The notes: generated from the letters alone by a model not told the origin. 64,000 nucleotides of DNA from Terriglobales bacterium (GCA_035272625.1 DATEQN010000045.1:5918-69917), one strand, 5' to 3'; numbered from the stretch's first letter, positions 6,570 to 51,898 are shown. A program made the numbers and translations.

Positions 6570-8279
6570 TTGCTGACGCTCATGGACTGGATTCCAGCCG
6601 CCTTCCGCTGGCTGTTCGCCTCAGGGTTCGACTCGGAGCACGGCGCATTCGGCCGCCTGATTCCACGCTGGCTCTTCTTGCGGGCACTTGGCTGCATTTA
6701 TTTTTCCGCCTTCTTCTCGCTCGTCTTTCAGATTCGTGGGCTCATCGGACCGGAAGGGATTTTGCCGGCAGACGAGTATCTCCGGGCGGTGGCGCATTCT
6801 GTTGGCTACAGCCGCGGATTATGGTACGCGCCCACTTTGCTTTGGCTGGCAAGCCGCCCGCATATGCTAACCGCCCTGTGCTGGGTGGGCATGGGCGCAT
6901 CGCTACTTTTGGTTCTGAATGCATGGCCGCGTGGAATGCTAACGATCTGTTTTCTGTGTTTCCTCTCGTTCGTCAGCGCAGCGCAGGATTTTTCCGGTTA
7001 TCAATCAGATGGGATGTTGCTTGAAGCTGGATTTATTGCGCTATTCTTTTCTCCGCCCGGATTTCGTCCGGGCCTCGGTGCGGCATCGCCGCCATCGCGG
7101 GCTAGTTTGTTTCTACTGCTGTGGGAATGGTTTCGCATTTATTTCGAGTCCGGTGTGGCGAAGATTATCGGGGGAGATCCCGAGTGGCGCAACTTTACCG
7201 CTATGGACGAGTACTACCAGAACGGTCCTCTGCCCACATGGATCGGCTGGTACATGCAGCATCTGCCGCACTGGTTCCATGCTTCGACGGTTTTTGCGAC
7301 GCTGACGCTTGAACTGGTTTTGGTGTGGATGTTCGTTCTGCCGCGCCGCTGGCGAATCGCTTGCTTCTTCATTGTGACTCCCTGGCAACTCGTCGTTATT
7401 CTCACCGCCAACTACACATTTCTGAATTACCTTGTCCTGATGCTGGGATTCCTTTTGCTGGATGATCGCTTTCTGCTGCAGTTCCTCCCGCAGCACTTCC
7501 GAGAACGATGGAAGAGGTTTTTCGTCGCGGGCGCCACAACCGCGACCGAGGACAAGCCGACGGCGTCTGAACCCAGTCCAACCGATCAGGCGCTGGAAAC
7601 GTCGGCGGAATCAGGACAACGCGAGCAAAGTCAACCGCGAGATTGGAAAGGCGCCTTCCGACAACCGTTCAGGATACTTAAGCTCTCTCTGAGCGGCGTA
7701 ATGCTTAGCTGGATTTTCTATGCCACGACCGCGGAGTTGATCTGGATGTTCTCCGCTCTCCCGCTGCCAACGACCCCGGTGGAGTTGATCGAGCCTTTTC
7801 GAATCGCCAATCGATACGGCCTTTTTGGCATCATGACCAGGGGCCGATACGAGATCGAGTTCCAGGGTTCTGAAGATGGAAAAACCTGGGTGGTATATCC
7901 GTTCCGCTACAAGCCTCAGGACCTGAGTACGCCGCCTGGAATTTACGCGCCTTACCAGCCACGATTCGACTGGAATCTTTGGTTTGCTTCGCTGGGCTCT
8001 TGGCGTGATTATCCAATTGTGCTCAACACTGAAGTCCGGCTGCTTTCCAATGACAACGACGTTCTTACTCTTTTTGAGAAAAATCCCTTTCCGCATGAAC
8101 CGCCACGCCAGGTGCGTGCTGTGGTTTGGCAATATTGGTTCACAACAATGTCCGAAAAGCGGAGACAAGGCCTCTGGTGGCGCCGTCAATTTGTGGGACT
8201 CTACGCACCGACGATCGAGCGCGAACCCGATGGCACGATTCGTGGTGTCGAGTGGTCTACGGTTGGTCCACACGAATGA
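6570..8279 (+). CDS. Lipase maturation factor (LMF1/DUF1222) family membrane protein
   Basis: Polytopic membrane ORF. The C-terminal block YEIEFQGSEDGKTWVVYPFRYKPQ...PYQPRFDWNLWFASLG is typical of the LMF family. TTG at 6570; first ATG at 6582. Confidence 0.7.
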   Translation: MLTLMDWIPAAFRWLFASGFDSEHGAFGRLIPRWLFLRALGCIYFSAFFSLVFQIRGLIGPEGILPADEYLRAVAHSVGYSRGLWYAPTLLWLASRPHMLTALCWVGMGASLLLVLNAWPRGMLTICFLCFLSFVSAAQDFSGYQSDGMLLEAGFIALFFSPPGFRPGLGAASPPSRASLFLLLWEWFRIYFESGVAKIIGGDPEWRNFTAMDEYYQNGPLPTWIGWYMQHLPHWFHASTVFATLTLELVLVWMFVLPRRWRIACFFIVTPWQLVVILTANYTFLNYLVLMLGFLLLDDRFLLQFLPQHFRERWKRFFVAGATTATEDKPTASEPSPTDQALETSAESGQREQSQPRDWKGAFRQPFRILKLSLSGVMLSWIFYATTAELIWMFSALPLPTTPVELIEPFRIANRYGLFGIMTRGRYEIEFQGSEDGKTWVVYPFRYKPQDLSTPPGIYAPYQPRFDWNLWFASLGSWRDYPIVLNTEVRLLSNDNDVLTLFEKNPFPHEPPRQVRAVVWQYWFTTMSEKRRQGLWWRRQFVGLYAPTIEREPDGTIRGVEWSTVGPHE

Positions 8280-46456: not shown

Positions 46457-46708
46457 ATGCCAACCCTATACGTAGAAAACGTGCCCAAAGACCTCTACGA
46501 AGCCCTGCGCGCCCGCGCCCGCAAGAACCGGAGCTCCATCGCCGCCGAGGTGATCTCTCTGCTGGAGCAGTTCGTTCCAACCCCCGCGGAATTGCGCCGC
46601 CGGATGCGGGCGTATGAAGAGCTCATGCGGCTGCAAGCTTCCACGCCTCCCGGCCCGGGGCCGTTTCAAAGCACAGAAGAGATGATCCGCGAGGATCGTG
46701 AACGGTGA
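46457..46708 (+). CDS. vapB: Type II antitoxin, ribbon-helix-helix (FitA/VapB-like)
   Basis: 83 aa. MPTLYVENVPKDLYEALRARARKNRSSIAAEVISLLEQ is an Arc/RHH pattern. Its stop overlaps the PIN gene start (GTGA). Confidence 0.7.
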   Translation: MPTLYVENVPKDLYEALRARARKNRSSIAAEVISLLEQFVPTPAELRRRMRAYEELMRLQASTPPGPGPFQSTEEMIREDRER

Positions 46709-47136
46709 CCACCTGCGTGGTGGACGCCAATGTCGCCGCCAAGTGGCTTCTGCCCGCAGCTGGCGAAGGTCTTCTCGACCAAGCGAATCGCTTAGTCGTA
46801 TTGCACGTGAGGCGTGAGTTGCAACTGCTGGCGCCGGACTTGATCGAGGCTGAAATCGGCAATGTCCTCTGGAAAGCCGTGCGGCGCAACCGGATCAGCC
46901 TGGCGGAAGCTGAGAATTCCTTGCGACGTTTCGCTGCTCTTGCGATCCAAGTCGTCCCCACCTCTGACTTGCTGAGTCAAGCGTTGCAGATCGCCGTGGC
47001 TTGCGACCAGAGTTTCTACGACAGCCTTTATGTCGCGATGGCGCTCACGACCAAGACGGAACTCATTACCGCGGACGAACGCCTGGTGAACGCCCTCGGA
47101 AGCCGCTTCCCCGTCCGCTGGCTCGGAGCTTTCTAG
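46705..47136 (+). CDS. vapC: Type II toxin, PIN-domain ribonuclease VapC
   Basis: 143 aa. CVVDANVAAKWLL (first acidic residue), later E and D residues (DLIEAEIGNV, FYDSLYVAMA) and ELITADERL match the PIN fold pattern. Confidence 0.8.
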   Translation: MTTCVVDANVAAKWLLPAAGEGLLDQANRLVVLHVRRELQLLAPDLIEAEIGNVLWKAVRRNRISLAEAENSLRRFAALAIQVVPTSDLLSQALQIAVACDQSFYDSLYVAMALTTKTELITADERLVNALGSRFPVRWLGAF

Positions 47137-47742: not shown

Positions 47743-47923
47743 CGAAAACCGAGCGGACGGCATCATGTGTAAGACGGTATCTGCCGGCCCCGACGCGACC
47801 GGCGGTGCTGTGCCCTTGTCCAATTCAGGTGTCGATCGCTCTTTGCCTAGCATCGAGAGCTGGCAGAGATTTTCACGACTGAAGGGGAGGCAACCGGAAC
47901 CTCATTTCAGTTACACTGATCCG

Positions 47924-47972
47924 TTGGCGATGGAGTTCGCCGGTAACCGCCCTTCGGCTGATAACTCCTACA
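47924..47972 (+). promoter_or_regulatory. Fluoride riboswitch (crcB RNA motif)
   Basis: TGGCGATGGAGTTCGCCGGTAACCGCCCTTCGGCTGATAACTCCTACAG matches the crcB motif: GGCGA/TCGCC helix, AACCGCC, GCTGAT, and GGAGT/ACTCC pseudoknot partners. It is followed by AGGAGGA and the crcB start. Confidence 0.8.
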
Positions 47973-47996
47973 GAACTTTTGCAGGAGGACTCCGTC

Positions 47997-48404
47997 GTGG
48001 ACTTTCACGCTAACCATCTCGCAAACTATCTCTCCAACTATGTGTGGATCGCGCTCGGCGCCGTGGTCGGAGCCAGCGCCCGCTACTTCCTCAGCACTCT
48101 CATCGCCCGCGATTTCTCCTCCGCGTTCCCCTACGGCACGCTGCTGATCAACATCACCGGCAGCCTCGTCCTCGGATTCTTTCTCGTTTTCTCGACCGAA
48201 CGCGTACTGCTCGACCCGCGCTGGCGCCTGCTGGTCGCGATTGGGTTTTGCGGTTCATACACTACTTTCTCCAGCTACGCCTTCGAAAGCTTCGCGCTGA
48301 TGGAACAGGGACAATGGCTCCTGACCGGCATCAATATCGTGGCCAGCAACGTCCTCTGCCTGGCCGCCGTTTTGGCTGGCGCCGCACTTGCCCGTGGGAT
48401 GTAA
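47997..48404 (+). CDS. crcB: Fluoride ion channel CrcB/FluC
   Basis: GAVVGASARY, FPYGTLLINITGSLVLGFF and GFCGSYTTFSS motifs, with 4 TM helices. GTG 47997 lies 7 nt after AGGAGGA. The longest ORF opens at 47979. Confidence 0.85.
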   Translation: MDFHANHLANYLSNYVWIALGAVVGASARYFLSTLIARDFSSAFPYGTLLINITGSLVLGFFLVFSTERVLLDPRWRLLVAIGFCGSYTTFSSYAFESFALMEQGQWLLTGINIVASNVLCLAAVLAGAALARGM

Positions 48405-48405
48405 A

Positions 48406-48735
48406 ATGGCAACCGCTATGGCCGTTCAAGTCACCATCTATCTCACCGAAGGCGATTCCTGGCATCATCGACCGCTGCATCTGGAGATCCTGAAATACCT
48501 ACGCGAAGAAAACGTCTTCGGAGCCGTCGCCTTCCACGCCGTGGCCGGTTTCCTCGGACGCGGCCGAGTCCACACCGCGCACCTGGTCGAAGCCGGGGGC
48601 GAGTTACCCGTCGTCATCTCGTTCGTCGATACCGACGAGCACGTCAACCGCGCTCTGCCCAAGCTCAGAGAGATGGCCGCCCACCGGCTCATCGTGCGAG
48701 AAAACGTCGTCATCGAGCAAGGCAGTTTGGACTGA
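48406..48735 (+). CDS. DUF190 domain protein (commonly linked to crcB)
   Basis: MATAMAVQVTIYLTEGDSWHHRPLHLEILKYLREENVFGAVAFHAVAGF is the DUF190 pattern. ATG lies 1 nt after the crcB stop. Confidence 0.8.
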   Translation: MATAMAVQVTIYLTEGDSWHHRPLHLEILKYLREENVFGAVAFHAVAGFLGRGRVHTAHLVEAGGELPVVISFVDTDEHVNRALPKLREMAAHRLIVRENVVIEQGSLD

Positions 48736-48761: not shown

Positions 48762-50654
48762 GTGAAGCGGGCTCCGTACAACGAGTGCGGCACCTGGCAC
48801 AAAAGGAGTTCGGTCAGCGCAATGACTTCAGATCGCCGGACACCACATCGTCGCGCAAGTGACACGATGCGCCTCGCAGTATCCGACGAGTTGCGAGCCT
48901 CTGGTTCTCCGTCCGATTCAGGCCAAAGCAGCGTTGTCGGCAGGGAGCCGGACACCCTGCTTCGCATTGCCAGCCTGGCCGAGCAATTCAACTGCGACCA
49001 AATCACGGATGATGCCCGCTCTGCCGCCGAGCGCATTGCGGAAGGGCGTTTCTACGTGGCGTGCGTCGGCCAGTTCAAACGCGGCAAGTCCACCCTGTTG
49101 AACGCCCTGATGGACGAGCCCATCCTGCCCAGTGGAGTGGTTCCGGTCACGGCTGTCCCCACGATATTGAGATTCGGAGAGAGCCTCGGGGCCCGTGTTC
49201 GCTTAAGCAGCGGTGAATGGACGGACATTGCAATCGCCGATATTGAGGAGTACGTGTCCGAAGTACGGAACCCGCAGAACAGCAAGGGTGTCGCCGGCTT
49301 GGAGGTATTTGTGCCCAGCCCGCTGCTGGCAGAGGGCATGTGCTTCGTGGACACACCGGGGCTCGGCTCCGTGTTCGCGGGGAACACTGCTGCCACACAT
49401 GCATTCCTCCCACACATCGACGCTGCCATCGTCGTGATCGGTGCCGATCCTCCGATAGGCGGAGATGAATTGGCGCTGGTCGAGAGCGTTGCGAAAGAAA
49501 TTCCTGACATCCTGTTCGTCTTGAACAAGGCAGATCGTGTCACCAAACTAGACCGGGATGCGGCCGTTTCCTTTGCCAGGCAAGTGCTTGAGAGTCGGCT
49601 CCAGCGTCCTGTCCGTTCGATTTTCGAAATCAGTGCCCTCGAACAACTCGACAACGGTGGTTCTCAAAGAGACTGGCCTCAATTGGTCGATGCCCTGGAG
49701 CAGTTGACGCGGCAATCAAGCCGGCAACTTGTCCGCGATGCTGAGGATCGTTCGGTGCGACGTTTATCTACTCAACTCCTTATCGTAGTGAAGGAGGAGC
49801 GAGACGCGTTGACTCGACCCTTTGATGAGTCTGAGAGACGGATCAGCCAACTACGCGAGATAGTGTCGCAAGCGGAGCAGTCCCTAAGTGATCTCGGATA
49901 CCTGTTCTCAGGAGAGCAGCAGCGCCTGTCAAAGACGTTTGGTGATCATCGGGATCTCTTCCTCAAGTCCGTGCGAGAAGTGGCGCACCACGAACTTGGC
50001 TCGATCCTACAATCACTGCCGCGAACCAACGGGCCCCGGTATCGGCGATCTGCAATGGGAGTGGCTCAAGATGTTGCTCGGAATCACACGATGCCGTGGT
50101 TGGAAACCGAGAAAACAAAGGGTGAGGAAGCGTACCGCAAGATAGCGAACAGATTCACGGATTTGACAACTGATTTCTTGTCAAAGACGCGTCGCATCCG
50201 AACCTCCGAGCTGGAGTATCTGCCAAAAGAGTTGAATGCTGAACAGGATTTCCGAACGCGCTCTGAGTTTCAGTTCTACGAGTACATTGTTTTGGCTGTC
50301 CCAGCTTCCCCGGTGCGTTACGTAGCTGACCTTATGCTCGGTGCGGTTCGGGCGCACTCGGTGATTGATGCCGCGGCCCATGCTTTTCTCGATCTGCTCT
50401 TGGAGACCAACAGCGAACGCGTGCGAAACGATCTTGAGAAGCGTGTCACGGAGAGCCGCCGTTGTCTCGAAGCCGAAATACGCGCCATGCTGCGTGAACT
50501 GAGCGCAGTCGCAGAGCGGGCGCTGGCTCGTGCCCGCACCGCCCACGCAGCGGGCGCCCCATCGGTTGAATCTTCATTGAAAAGACTGTCGGGCATAGAG
50601 GCTGAACTCGTTCGCCTAAGCGGCGCCGACGCTTCTCATCTGGAGCATTCATGA
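48762..50654 (+). CDS. Dynamin-family (bacterial dynamin-like) GTPase with long helical C-terminal region
   Basis: G1 GQFKRGKST, G2-region VTAVPT, G3 DTPGLGS and G4 NKADR, followed by about 350 aa of charged helical sequence with no obvious TM segment. The start is uncertain: GTG 48762, ATG 48822 or ATG 48867. Confidence 0.8.
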   Translation: MKRAPYNECGTWHKRSSVSAMTSDRRTPHRRASDTMRLAVSDELRASGSPSDSGQSSVVGREPDTLLRIASLAEQFNCDQITDDARSAAERIAEGRFYVACVGQFKRGKSTLLNALMDEPILPSGVVPVTAVPTILRFGESLGARVRLSSGEWTDIAIADIEEYVSEVRNPQNSKGVAGLEVFVPSPLLAEGMCFVDTPGLGSVFAGNTAATHAFLPHIDAAIVVIGADPPIGGDELALVESVAKEIPDILFVLNKADRVTKLDRDAAVSFARQVLESRLQRPVRSIFEISALEQLDNGGSQRDWPQLVDALEQLTRQSSRQLVRDAEDRSVRRLSTQLLIVVKEERDALTRPFDESERRISQLREIVSQAEQSLSDLGYLFSGEQQRLSKTFGDHRDLFLKSVREVAHHELGSILQSLPRTNGPRYRRSAMGVAQDVARNHTMPWLETEKTKGEEAYRKIANRFTDLTTDFLSKTRRIRTSELEYLPKELNAEQDFRTRSEFQFYEYIVLAVPASPVRYVADLMLGAVRAHSVIDAAAHAFLDLLLETNSERVRNDLEKRVTESRRCLEAEIRAMLRELSAVAERALARARTAHAAGAPSVESSLKRLSGIEAELVRLSGADASHLEHS

Positions 50655-51397
50655 GTCCGGCCGCCATCTACGGGAGAGAGGCGGAGCTTGAGCAACTCCG
50701 GCAGTTGGTGTCTCGGCGTCGTTCCTTCCTGTTGCACGGTCCCGCTGGCGTTGGCAAAACACTGCTCCTGAAGCGTCTGGCAGGCGAGGTATCCGAGATG
50801 GTGTATTGCGACGAATCTTCCAGCAGTCAAGCTGTTTTTCGGAAGCTTGCGGCTGGGCTGTTAGCGAGGAAGAATCGCCATGTCCTCCAAGCCTGCGGGA
50901 CTGGCGGACTGAATGCCATCAAGGACAAGTCGGCCGTCTCCATCCGGGGGATCGTCGCCGACGCCTTGCGGGAAGCCAGCCATTGGATTGTGCTCGACCA
51001 CTTGCAATCTTCGTCGCAGTCGTTTGCTGCCTCACTGAAGGATGTGTGCAATTGGACGGCAACCCCGCTCATTGCGGTTGCCCGCTCCGCGCACATGGAA
51101 GATGTCGGGTTCTTGCTGCCGATGTTCTCCGATCGCTCCGAGAAGTATGCCCTGCGGAATTTCGATTCGGATACCGCACGAGAGTTTGCGGTGCAAACCG
51201 CACAGGAGCTGCACCTGAACGCCGCCAACCGCGACGAAGCGATTCAGAAGATCGTCCACTACAGCAAGGGGAGTCCGGGCGCGATTGTCGCTATGCTCCA
51301 AATGGCAGCCAGTCCAAGGTACGTTACCCAGCAGCATGTCAAGCTTTCGCCGCTGTACATAGACTTCAGGCTGCGGTGGGGTGCCACCCATGGATGA
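50651..51397 (+). CDS. P-loop NTPase (AAA/ORC-like ATPase domain), 248 aa
   Basis: IYGREAELEQLRQLVSRRRSFLLHGPAGVGKTLLLKRL contains the Walker A motif. A Walker B-like HWIVLDHL follows. The start overlaps the upstream stop (ATGA). Confidence 0.75.
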   Translation: MSPAAIYGREAELEQLRQLVSRRRSFLLHGPAGVGKTLLLKRLAGEVSEMVYCDESSSSQAVFRKLAAGLLARKNRHVLQACGTGGLNAIKDKSAVSIRGIVADALREASHWIVLDHLQSSSQSFAASLKDVCNWTATPLIAVARSAHMEDVGFLLPMFSDRSEKYALRNFDSDTAREFAVQTAQELHLNAANRDEAIQKIVHYSKGSPGAIVAMLQMAASPRYVTQQHVKLSPLYIDFRLRWGATHG

Positions 51398-51809
51398 TGG
51401 ACTCAGTGACAACCATCGTAGAGTCATCGCGAGCGGCATGCTGATCGTCGATGCCGCGGCGGTTCGTATGCTCGATCTCCTGGAAGACCGGAATTCGCCA
51501 GCGGCCATGAAGACCATCGAGGGCTCCGTTACTGAGAGCGAAAGAGAGCAGATCAGGGCGGGTCTGCATCAACTTCAGGCGCTCATCGCTTCTTTTGTGC
51601 GGAAGAATGATCTTCAGCCCTCAAAGAAAGACCTCCGTCGCATCCTGGCATCGGACGTGTCCCAGATATGGGTGGCTTTGGAGGACAGCCGGCCTGCCCG
51701 AATCCGGGGATACGGCGCCCTGCCGGCTTCCAGCGCCGAATCACTGGAAGCAGACTTACAGGACCTGTTGCTGGTTGTCAAAAGACTCAGGGCGCTGCTG
51801 AACTCCTAA
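51390..51809 (+). CDS. Hypothetical helical protein (139 aa), third gene of the GTPase cassette
   Basis: ATG 51390 overlaps the stop of the ATPase gene (ATGGATGA). The composition is helical. I recognise no motif. Confidence 0.55.
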   Translation: MDDGLSDNHRRVIASGMLIVDAAAVRMLDLLEDRNSPAAMKTIEGSVTESEREQIRAGLHQLQALIASFVRKNDLQPSKKDLRRILASDVSQIWVALEDSRPARIRGYGALPASSAESLEADLQDLLLVVKRLRALLNS

Positions 51810-51830: not shown

Positions 51831-51865
51831 CCACTCATTCGCGTTCGCCTTTTGCGAATGAGTGG
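51831..51865. terminator. 12-bp perfect hairpin between convergent genes (probable terminator)
   Basis: CCACTCATTCGC-(11 nt)-GCGAATGAGTGG, followed by GTGAATGA repeats. It starts 22 nt after the cassette stop and lies 34 nt before the GH5 stop. There is no clear U-tract. Confidence 0.5.
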
Positions 51866-51898
51866 AATCAGTGAATGAGTGAATGACTGGGAAGTTGC

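Follow-up and report, generated by a model that had tools for sequence, protein, structure and literature searches.

The DNA analyzed here is a stretch of 64,000 nucleotides (nt) of the Terriglobales bacterium GCA_035272625.1 (DATEQN010000045.1:5918-69917), referred to below as the window, from whose start all positions are counted. It carries three co-directional open reading frames (ORFs) coding for a dynamin-like protein (DLP; ORF1), a small P-loop NTPase (ORF2), and a short helical protein (ORF3). An earlier note on this sequence had recognized the three genes and proposed that they could form a horizontally acquired membrane-surveillance or anti-phage module. However, the context of this cassette is decided by elements directly upstream of it that were absent from that note, namely a fluoride riboswitch, the fluoride channel gene crcB, and a gene of the DUF190 family (Table 1).

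Table 1. Riboswitch, genes, and hairpin at the DLP locus, in window coordinates
Feature	Position	Strand	Evidence
Fluoride riboswitch aptamer, Rfam RF01734 (crcB motif)	47917-47977	+	Rfam, 56 bits (gathering score 34), E 7.7e-13
crcB (Fluc fluoride channel)	47997-48404	+	Pfam CRCB, 6.1e-29
DUF190 (PII-like) protein gene	48388-48735	+	Pfam DUF190, 5.5e-27
ORF1, bacterial dynamin-like GTPase, 610 aa	48822-50654	+	Pfam Dynamin_N, 1.2e-24; start from N-terminal alignment
ORF2, minimal STAND/ORC-like AAA+ P-loop NTPase, 248 aa	50651-51397	+	Pfam AAA_16, 5.6e-13
ORF3, predicted four-helix-bundle protein, 139 aa, no Pfam match	51390-51809	+	205 close homologs; structure model
GC-rich hairpin between the convergent ORF3 and GH5 genes	51831-51865	.	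Sequence; folding

An Rfam scan of the whole window found two RNAs only, one tRNA and the fluoride riboswitch, whose 61-nt aptamer lies directly before crcB, on the strand of the trio and 0.8 kb upstream of it. A covariance model (R1) built from 25 of the riboswitches described here scored it at 66.8 bits and the next best match at 10.8 bits, that is, exactly one significant hit in the 64 kb used as a control. The 3' CUCCU of the aptamer is able, judging by sequence and folding, to pair either into the aptamer pseudoknot or with AGGAG in the ribosome-binding site of crcB, which appears to be the usual translational ON design, and, from the riboswitch to the ORF3 end, the window has no terminator-like site beyond what chance would give. 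As read from the sequence, crcB likely starts at GTG 47997, downstream of AGGAGG, the longest ORF beginning at TTG 47979. The last 17 nt of crcB are shared with the start of the DUF190 gene, and 86 nt separate the end of the latter from the start of ORF1. The stop/start overlaps that the earlier note had described within the trio, ATGA (50651-50654) between ORF1 and ORF2 and ATGGATGA (51390-51397) between ORF2 and ORF3, are present and kept at the same sites in about 24 related genomes (tblastn), so they are not due to chance.

Scanning one genome per species gave 28 loci with close relatives, all of them in metagenome-assembled genomes (MAGs) of Terriglobales from peat or soil, and ORF1-ORF2-ORF3 with the same overlaps were found by tblastn in about 24 of these. 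All 24 loci that had both upstream DNA and the ORF2-ORF3 pair carried a fluoride riboswitch on the operon strand (Rfam scans). What stands between the two varies. The window and 10 further loci have the order riboswitch-crcB-DUF190-trio (type A). In type B (five loci), a Na/H exchanger gene precedes crcB, which is followed by a gene with two DUF190 domains, a second DUF190 gene, and the trio, with overlaps of 4 to 8 nt from the DUF190 genes through ORF3; here, the DUF190 stop overlaps the ORF1 start. Four loci are as type B minus the exchanger (type B'), and in three (type C; L008, L011, and L022) the riboswitch stands directly before ORF1, with no transporter gene. A single locus places DUF190 after the trio (riboswitch-crcB-trio-DUF190; type E, L024), and another (type D, L025) keeps the riboswitch, a 31-aa CrcB remnant, and ORF2-ORF3 coupled by ATGA, with no DLP. 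Through all other gene gain and loss among these relatives, the trio retains the fluoride riboswitch.

The 31-aa ORF of L025 (MPDWFNHFFTTSLGAMLGADSRHKSAALAGR; 7156-7251) follows the riboswitch, is itself coupled by ATGA to the ORF2 homolog, and resembles the N-terminal remnant of a CrcB protein. This locus looks like a deletion derivative in which crcB, DUF190, and the DLP gene were lost and ORF2-ORF3 were kept.

Most of the 28 genomes also share the chromosomal neighborhood of the cassette (fabD-plsX-rpmF-yceD on one side and aminotransferase-TPR-pqqE on the other), and identities among relatives (63-94% for ORF1 and 59-98% for ORF2) are similar to those of the neighboring aminotransferase gene (75-93%). 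The low G+C content that had been suspected for the cassette did not hold up, since it has 58.1% versus 58.9% for the window (24th percentile of 3-kb windows), with only a local dip to 53% in ORF1, whose G+C at third codon positions (GC3) is somewhat low (0.62). The flanking genes, thought to be well above 60%, have 57-62%. From the conserved synteny, the identity range, and the normal G+C, the cassette appears to be vertically inherited under purifying selection rather than to be a mobile island. An island acquired by horizontal gene transfer, or one of low G+C, was ruled out by the windowed G+C and GC3, which showed no island-like deviation, and by the conserved synteny.

The link to fluoride extends beyond the Terriglobales. 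Usable genomic context was available for nine independent distant ORF3 members, of which those in riboswitch-led clusters (L031, L033, L035, L037, and L041) are 25-33% identical to the ORF3 of the window. L033 has the order riboswitch-crcB-DUF190-ORF3-ORF3-AAA_16-DLP-crcB-DUF190-HEAT, in which the genes of the trio are reversed, and its DLP shares 51% identity with ORF1 along the entire protein. L041 has riboswitch-AAA_16-ORF3-crcB-DUF190-HEAT, and L043 has ORF3-AAA_16-DLP close to a contig end, where a riboswitch is not assessable. The order is riboswitch-Na/H exchanger-MutS-like-ORF3-enolase-PAP2-DLP in L037 and riboswitch-ABC-DUF6062-MFS-TerC-DLP-DUF6062-HEAT-ORF3 in L035, and in L031 a riboswitch with a classic terminator platform has an ORF3 homolog as its only downstream gene, so this protein can apparently be the sole cargo of a fluoride riboswitch. 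In Hymenobacter (L030), ORF3 is immediately upstream of riboswitch-CLC-DUF190-NhaA, while L039 and L045 are solo copies with no detected riboswitch.

Two further protein types, cysteine-rich DUF6062 proteins and small HEAT_2 proteins, recur in the fluoride operons with the DLP and the ORF3 family (L035, 998-1615 and 4932-5591; L033, 7692-8105; L041, 3120-3518) and may be additional parts of the same machinery; the HEAT_2 protein of L033 has a zinc-ribbon-like motif at its N terminus. The MAG that contains L033 (GCA_035559855.1, contig DATMAO010000203.1) is labeled as the archaeon Candidatus Nitrosotenuis, but the contig carries bacterial-type MutM/Fpg, ArsR, and CrcB genes as well as the DLP 51% identical to that of Terriglobales, and is probably a mis-binned bacterial contig.

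A larger sample was obtained from the P-loop context of the DLP (FY-x4-GQFKRGK), which was back-translated to a DNA pattern, checked on known loci, and scanned over the metagenomes of the Joint Genome Institute (JGI), with genes called by hidden Markov models (HMMs). This yielded at least 120 loci; the figures that follow refer to the 120 matches listed, 870 kb in total. Model R1 found 94 riboswitches in them (0.108 per kb, versus one in the 64-kb window), and 100 of the 120 listed loci had a riboswitch and/or co-directional genes for CrcB, DUF190, Na/H exchangers, enolase, or MutS-like proteins. Among the 38 listed loci with more than 5 kb of upstream DNA, 29 had a same-strand riboswitch upstream and no intervening gene in the opposite direction, and the aptamer directly precedes the DLP gene in 12 of the 120. 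ORF2-like genes were present in 46 listed loci, ORF3-like genes in 21, a second, distant DLP in 34, and DUF190 in 53, with permuted orders such as ORF3-ORF2-DLP, ORF2-DLP, ORF3-DLP-ORF2, and DLP-ORF3. The co-occurrence of ORF2 and ORF3 homologs with dynamin genes in other genomes thus bears out the view that the three form a conserved coupled module. The G domains of the listed DLPs fall into 28 clusters at 70% identity, 32-88% identical to ORF1, and 17 of the 28 clusters include a locus with a riboswitch.

The second DLP (approximately 700 aa, HMM score 160-250) is a paralog coded upstream of crcB in the same operon in those 34 of the 120 listed loci, so that in some lineages two DLPs bracket crcB and the DUF190 genes (e.g., L049, L065, L067, L076, L080, L096, L098, and L105). 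Of the tandem DUF190 genes, the first codes for 244 aa with two DUF190 domains and the second, which overlaps it, for 118 aa with a single such domain (L002, 4364-5451; also L003, L013, L016, and L028). The same pair is found in many of the loci L046-L165. It is the commonest immediate upstream neighbor of the DLP gene, and its three PII-like domains could form a pseudo-trimer. A cultured strain also has a dynamin gene in such a setting: on a RefSeq plasmid of Lichenicola cladoniae PAMC 26569 (L166; NZ_CP053712.1, 2425-17045), a gene annotated as "dynamin family protein," with a G domain 39% identical to that of ORF1, divergently adjoins a fluoride riboswitch (40 bits), behind which follow crcB and a gene for a universal stress protein, and a sodium:proton antiporter gene is nearby.

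ORF1 has the G1 (GQFKRGKST), G3 (DTPG), and G4 (NKAD) motifs, and its Dynamin_N score of 87.6 bits (cut-off 27) places the G domain in the dynamin superfamily. In an alignment of 16 members of the clade, GQFKRGKS, T110/T114, DTPG, and NKAD are invariant or nearly so. These motifs had been noticed before, but the start has to be moved from GTG 48762, which gives the longest form, to ATG 48822, because the aligned N termini of 22 orthologs share a conserved MSSDRRT there. The G domain is followed by about 350 aa, as previously described, and the match to IniA reaches into the first stalk helices. The accompanying statement that no membrane paddle is obvious is doubtful, since ORF1 has a single hydrophobic peak beyond the G domain (residues ~489-507, YEYIVLAVPASPVRY), where the whole clade keeps hydrophobic or aromatic residues, and this stretch could be a candidate membrane loop or paddle. 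The nearest solved structures are mycobacterial IniA (6j72, E 2.5e-22), the Campylobacter DLP1/2 pair, and the Nostoc BDLP. However, the NCBIfam scores are far under the cut-offs for DynA (59.8 bits vs 1600), LeoA (15.5 vs 325), and CrfC (23.3 vs 1146), and ORF1 therefore belongs to a distinct DLP clade.

Residues 514-563 in the C-terminal helices of ORF1 (50361-50510, VIDAAAHAFLDLLLETNSERV) and residues 19-65 in the first half of ORF3 (51444-51584, IVDAAAVRMLDLLEDRNSPAA) are locally similar, with 44% identity across 50 aa in blastp. The idea that ORF3 derives from the C terminus of the DLP was rejected after comparing the family profiles with hhalign (probability 0.4%, E 0.13).

The earlier description of ORF2 as a short ORC/AAA-like protein agrees with its Pfam matches (AAA_16 with 50 bits; nSTAND1 with 27.7 vs a cut-off of 27.1; nSTAND6 with 27.9 vs 27.7). 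Its Walker A motif, GPAGVGKT, is invariant, and the Walker B motif reads WIVLDH (hhhhDH), with an invariant Asp and no catalytic Glu; the residue after the Asp is His in the ORF2 proteins and Asp in L033 but never Glu, which suggests that ORF2 may be a nucleotide-bound switch or assembly factor. The AlphaFold model, with a predicted local distance difference test score (pLDDT) of 78.7, consists of a nucleotide-binding domain and a helical lid. Its top Foldseek matches are the NB-ARC domains of plant NLR proteins, ORC, RFC, and Cdc6 (E ~1e-5, TM-scores of 0.5-0.6). The protein ends there, at 248 aa, without sensor, repeat, or effector domains.

ORF3 has 205 close homologs, all from Terriglobales and nearly all of 139 aa. 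A profile search over 1.8 billion cluster representatives enlarged the family to 380 clusters at 50% identity (E <= 1e-3, full-length matches, ~133-155 aa), which share an N-terminal L-x-[DE]-N-H-[RK]-R and a W-x-x-L-E-D ... G-Y-G motif. Searching again with the diverse family alignment listed close relatives only. The model is a four-helix bundle (pLDDT 92.9) with no NTPase fold, consistent with the helical protein lacking known motifs that had been anticipated. No match was found in Pfam, NCBIfam, or PADLOC, Foldseek against the PDB gave nothing below E 0.95, and neither a profile search of PDB sequences nor a Pfam scan of 53 members gave anything consistent. ORF3 is the first member of a broad and widespread unannotated protein family. 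In most settings, its gene is translationally coupled to that of the AAA_16 ATPase, and it overlaps the MutS-like ATPase gene in L037 and the HEAT gene in L035; in this respect, it behaves like an adaptor, as far as gene arrangement can indicate.

An RF01734 aptamer precedes the trio in what is predicted to be one transcription unit, and this arrangement recurs across lineages, as in other members of the fluoride-riboswitch regulon. Considering that the riboswitch link holds in close, distant, and metagenomic loci, and that the cassette is apparently inherited vertically, we consider it likely that the trio forms the downstream end of an operon induced by fluoride and is an accessory arm of the fluoride response rather than a mobile defence island or a phage defence system. 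Its three genes are inherited together and their nucleotide-binding motifs are intact, and we infer that F- induces them along with CrcB. This arm would be vertically inherited in peat and soil Terriglobales and would recur, with shuffled gene order, in other soil bacteria. As cytoplasmic F- rises, the aptamer would fold and free the ribosome-binding site of crcB (in relatives with a terminator after the aptamer, folding would prevent termination instead), and the tight spacing and stop/start overlaps would carry expression on to ORF1-3, whose products would act together in the response.

How they might act is a more speculative matter. Because IniA is the closest solved relative and the hydrophobic or aromatic loop is conserved across the clade, we tentatively suggest, as the leading idea but with less than even odds, that the DLP maintains the membrane under influx of hydrogen fluoride (HF) and F- and under acidification, much as IniA and DynA act when the envelope is stressed in other ways. 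In the acid, Al-rich peat where these bacteria live, ORF1 is predicted to bind the cytoplasmic membrane via this loop and to use GTP to reseal or remodel the HF/F--stressed bilayer; ORF2, with slow hydrolysis owing to its Walker B DH, would be an ATP-bound assembly or switch subunit, and ORF3, as an adaptor, would link an NTPase to its target. More broadly, there is about an even chance that the GQFKRGKS clade of DLPs, the minimal STAND-like ATPase, and the new four-helix family make up an unrecognized arm of the fluoride response with a mechanistically new action, for instance a resealing of membranes that metal-fluoride drives or does not disturb, or the rescue of NTPases trapped by metal-fluoride.

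A different role within the fluoride response would be regulatory: the trio could be an NTPase system that senses the nucleotide or metal-fluoride state and gates, or otherwise controls, for example CrcB, DUF190, or a Na+/H+ exchanger, in the manner of RdcA-RdcB. We regard this as rather unlikely, although several data agree with it. The DLP gene most commonly follows DUF190 genes immediately, with stop/start overlaps (and 53 of the 120 listed metagenome loci have DUF190), the Walker B of ORF2 without the catalytic Glu fits a switch better than a motor, the fold of ORF2 is closest to STAND/NB-ARC signaling NTPases, and a regulatory pair of a DLP and a partner has been described (PMC6510439). 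However, in L008, L011, and L022 the trio is the sole cargo of the riboswitch and the operon has no transporter to be gated, and ORF1 is not an ortholog of RdcA/CrfC (23 bits vs a cut-off of 1146). To our knowledge, RdcB is not a P-loop ATPase, unlike ORF2, which weighs further against an RdcA-like function.

Fluoride might also act through MgF3- and AlF4-, which would poison phosphoryl-transfer enzymes, the trio then providing extra or fluoride-tolerant copies or sacrificial binders, similar to the enolase and pyrophosphatase copies of known fluoride operons. GDP-AlF4- traps dimers of dynamin G domains, and acid peat soils are rich in soluble Al. Enolase and MutS-like ATPase genes do share loci with the DLP and ORF3, and fluoride operons contain copies of genes whose enzymes F- inhibits (ppaC, eno, and gpmA in the Enterobacter cloacae FRM operon; PMC5533749). 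Still, no housekeeping function is known that the DLP or ORF2 could duplicate, it is implausible that a protein would sequester F- stoichiometrically, and ORF3 has no NTPase fold, all of which makes this explanation improbable.

Phage defence, as a horizontally acquired module related to Eleos/LeoABC, now has very little probability left. Bacillus subtilis DynA is linked to phage and pore resistance, a vapBC pair is nearby, and PADLOC gave a weak LeoA hit (2e-10, over part of the profile) as well as weak PDC-S27 and other P-loop hits for ORF2. These matches are all weak and generic, which led us to reject a named defence system and agrees with the earlier statement that the cassette could not be assigned to one. 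There is a single DLP and no LeoBC, NCBIfam LeoA stays at 15.5 bits vs 325, vapBC varies independently of the cassette, the G+C is normal, the flanks are housekeeping genes in synteny across most of the 28 genomes, and the link to the fluoride riboswitch and fluoride genes is consistent across distant lineages. Nor do we give appreciable weight to coincidental adjacency, in which ORF1-3 would have a function unrelated to fluoride and their own promoter in the 86-nt gap (where the promoter check covered the sigma-70 type only, and upstream of which the riboswitch acts on crcB translation); the comparative data strongly disfavor it, since DUF190 and ORF1 overlap in type B, the riboswitch stands directly before ORF1 in three loci and in 12 listed metagenome loci, and the association survives shuffling of gene order and holds at 25-50% protein identity.

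Some observations weigh against the trio being a fluoride-induced accessory arm. The solo ORF3 copies of L039 and L045 and the Hymenobacter copy, located upstream of its riboswitch, are under no detected aptamer, and among the 38 listed metagenome loci whose upstream DNA exceeds 5 kb, 9 had no riboswitch. ORF3 cannot serve solely as a DLP cofactor, because it is also found where there is no DLP. In the window, control at the ribosome-binding site of crcB would be translational, and the gap before ORF1 could hide an internal promoter. With respect to the membrane, we know of no indication that fluoride ruptures it.

Both elements that the earlier note had placed near the cassette, the hairpin and the vapBC pair, are present. 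The arms of the hairpin (51831-51842 and 51854-51865) form a perfect 12-bp stem, or 13 bp with one G-U, around a loop of 9 to 11 nt, and the 80-nt stretch 3' of ORF3 that includes it folds at -30.3 kcal/mol. It has no U-tract. Among relatives, L005 has it with altered bases in the arms, L002 has an imperfect version, and more distant loci lack it; a probable function is that of an end-of-operon or bidirectional terminator-like structure. Just 3' of it (51866-51885), GAATGAGTG from the 3' arm recurs as short direct repeats (GGAATCAGTGAATGAGTGAATGA). The vapB-vapC pair (46457-47136) lies 1.6 kb upstream of the cassette, between yceD and a glyoxalase gene. Some close relatives have it and others (e.g., L004 and L007) lack it, and vapC is 48-97% identical among relatives, diverging much faster than its neighbors; this is an indel-prone toxin-antitoxin pair unrelated to the cassette. 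On the other side, related genomes have one to three copies of the Acido-Lenti-1 RNA (RF01687) between the TPR gene and pqqE (L002, 12087-12712; L003, 11718-12340; L006, 10135-11031; L007, 13203-13248; L009, 13300-13345), and the Rfam scan found no copy reaching the gathering score in the matching part of the window.

Few bacterial DLPs have a known trigger, cell-wall drugs in the case of IniA and pores or phages in that of DynA. The association described here would place a whole DLP clade under a well-understood RNA switch that responds to one specific small molecule. If true, a clade of bacterial dynamins would for the first time have a defined physiological cue, namely fluoride, or HF/AlFx stress in acid soils. 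The fluoride "super-regulon" would then extend past transporters and spare enzymes to a GTPase/ATPase module and the ORF3 family, suggesting that acid-soil Acidobacteria facing HF and aluminum-fluoride stress invest in more than efflux. There is also a lesson for annotation in that an apparent defence island would be explained by a 61-nt RNA located 0.8 kb upstream.

The closest parallel is the fluoride-riboswitch regulon itself. It has the same 5' aptamer and the same logic, in which F- switches on a mixed set of protective genes, with crcB first and genes for Na+/H+ exchangers, enolase, MutS-like proteins, CLC, and universal stress proteins in related loci. The fluoride-resistance operon of E. 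cloacae FRM (ppaC-uspA-eno-gpmA-crcB-orf5249; PMC5533749) is of this type, and the gene classes described downstream of the crcB motif comprise mutS-like genes, K+/Cl- transport, formate hydrogen lyase, transporters, and F-inhibited enzymes (Weinberg 2010, PMC2864571; Sherlock and Breaker 2020, PMC7266159; PMC5533749). By contrast, these descriptions name no dynamin-like GTPase, AAA_16/STAND-like ATPase, or ORF3 family. Our literature search found no paper joining the fluoride riboswitch with dynamin or DUF190, crcB with bacterial dynamins, or, in the sense meant here, a DLP with a riboswitch; the supplement of Baker et al. (2012) may mention it.

Among dynamins, IniA of the iniBAC operon (PDB 6j72) comes closest to ORF1 among solved structures, with a match that spans the G domain and first stalk helices, is of similar size (~606-610 aa), belongs to a stress-induced operon, and maintains membrane integrity under drug stress. 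However, identity is low outside the G domain, and iniBAC codes for two DLPs (IniA and IniC) and IniB, with no P-loop ATPase or four-helix partner, and responds to cell-wall damage, not fluoride. DynA and Eleos/LeoABC share the dynamin-family G domain, and the second distant DLP of 34 of the 120 listed metagenome loci recalls their organization, but the window has one DLP gene, unlike the two-module DynA and IniBAC, and ORF1 is partnered with other protein classes. For Eleos/LeoABC, the PADLOC LeoA match is partial (2e-10), that of LeoBC is 0.0013 over 35 positions, and neither ORF2 nor ORF3 is a DLP. ORF2 shares its nucleotide-binding domain and helical lid with the STAND, ORC-Cdc6, and clamp-loader NTPases (AAA_16, nSTAND1, nSTAND6, and NB-ARC), but STAND NTPases carry sensor repeats and an effector, whereas ORF2 is a stand-alone minimal module with a Walker B DH that is paired with ORF3. 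Escherichia coli RdcA (YjdA/CrfC) and RdcB (YjcZ), a DLP with a non-dynamin partner that activates the cyclase DgcE (PMC6510439), set a precedent for a DLP with a small co-encoded partner and a signaling output, although the CrfC score of ORF1 (23.3 bits vs 1146) does not indicate orthology, the partners are unrelated, and RdcA-RdcB has no riboswitch or fluoride link. What is new here is a known type of fluoride-riboswitch operon with a new accessory module, and there is a real chance that the mechanism of this module is itself new.

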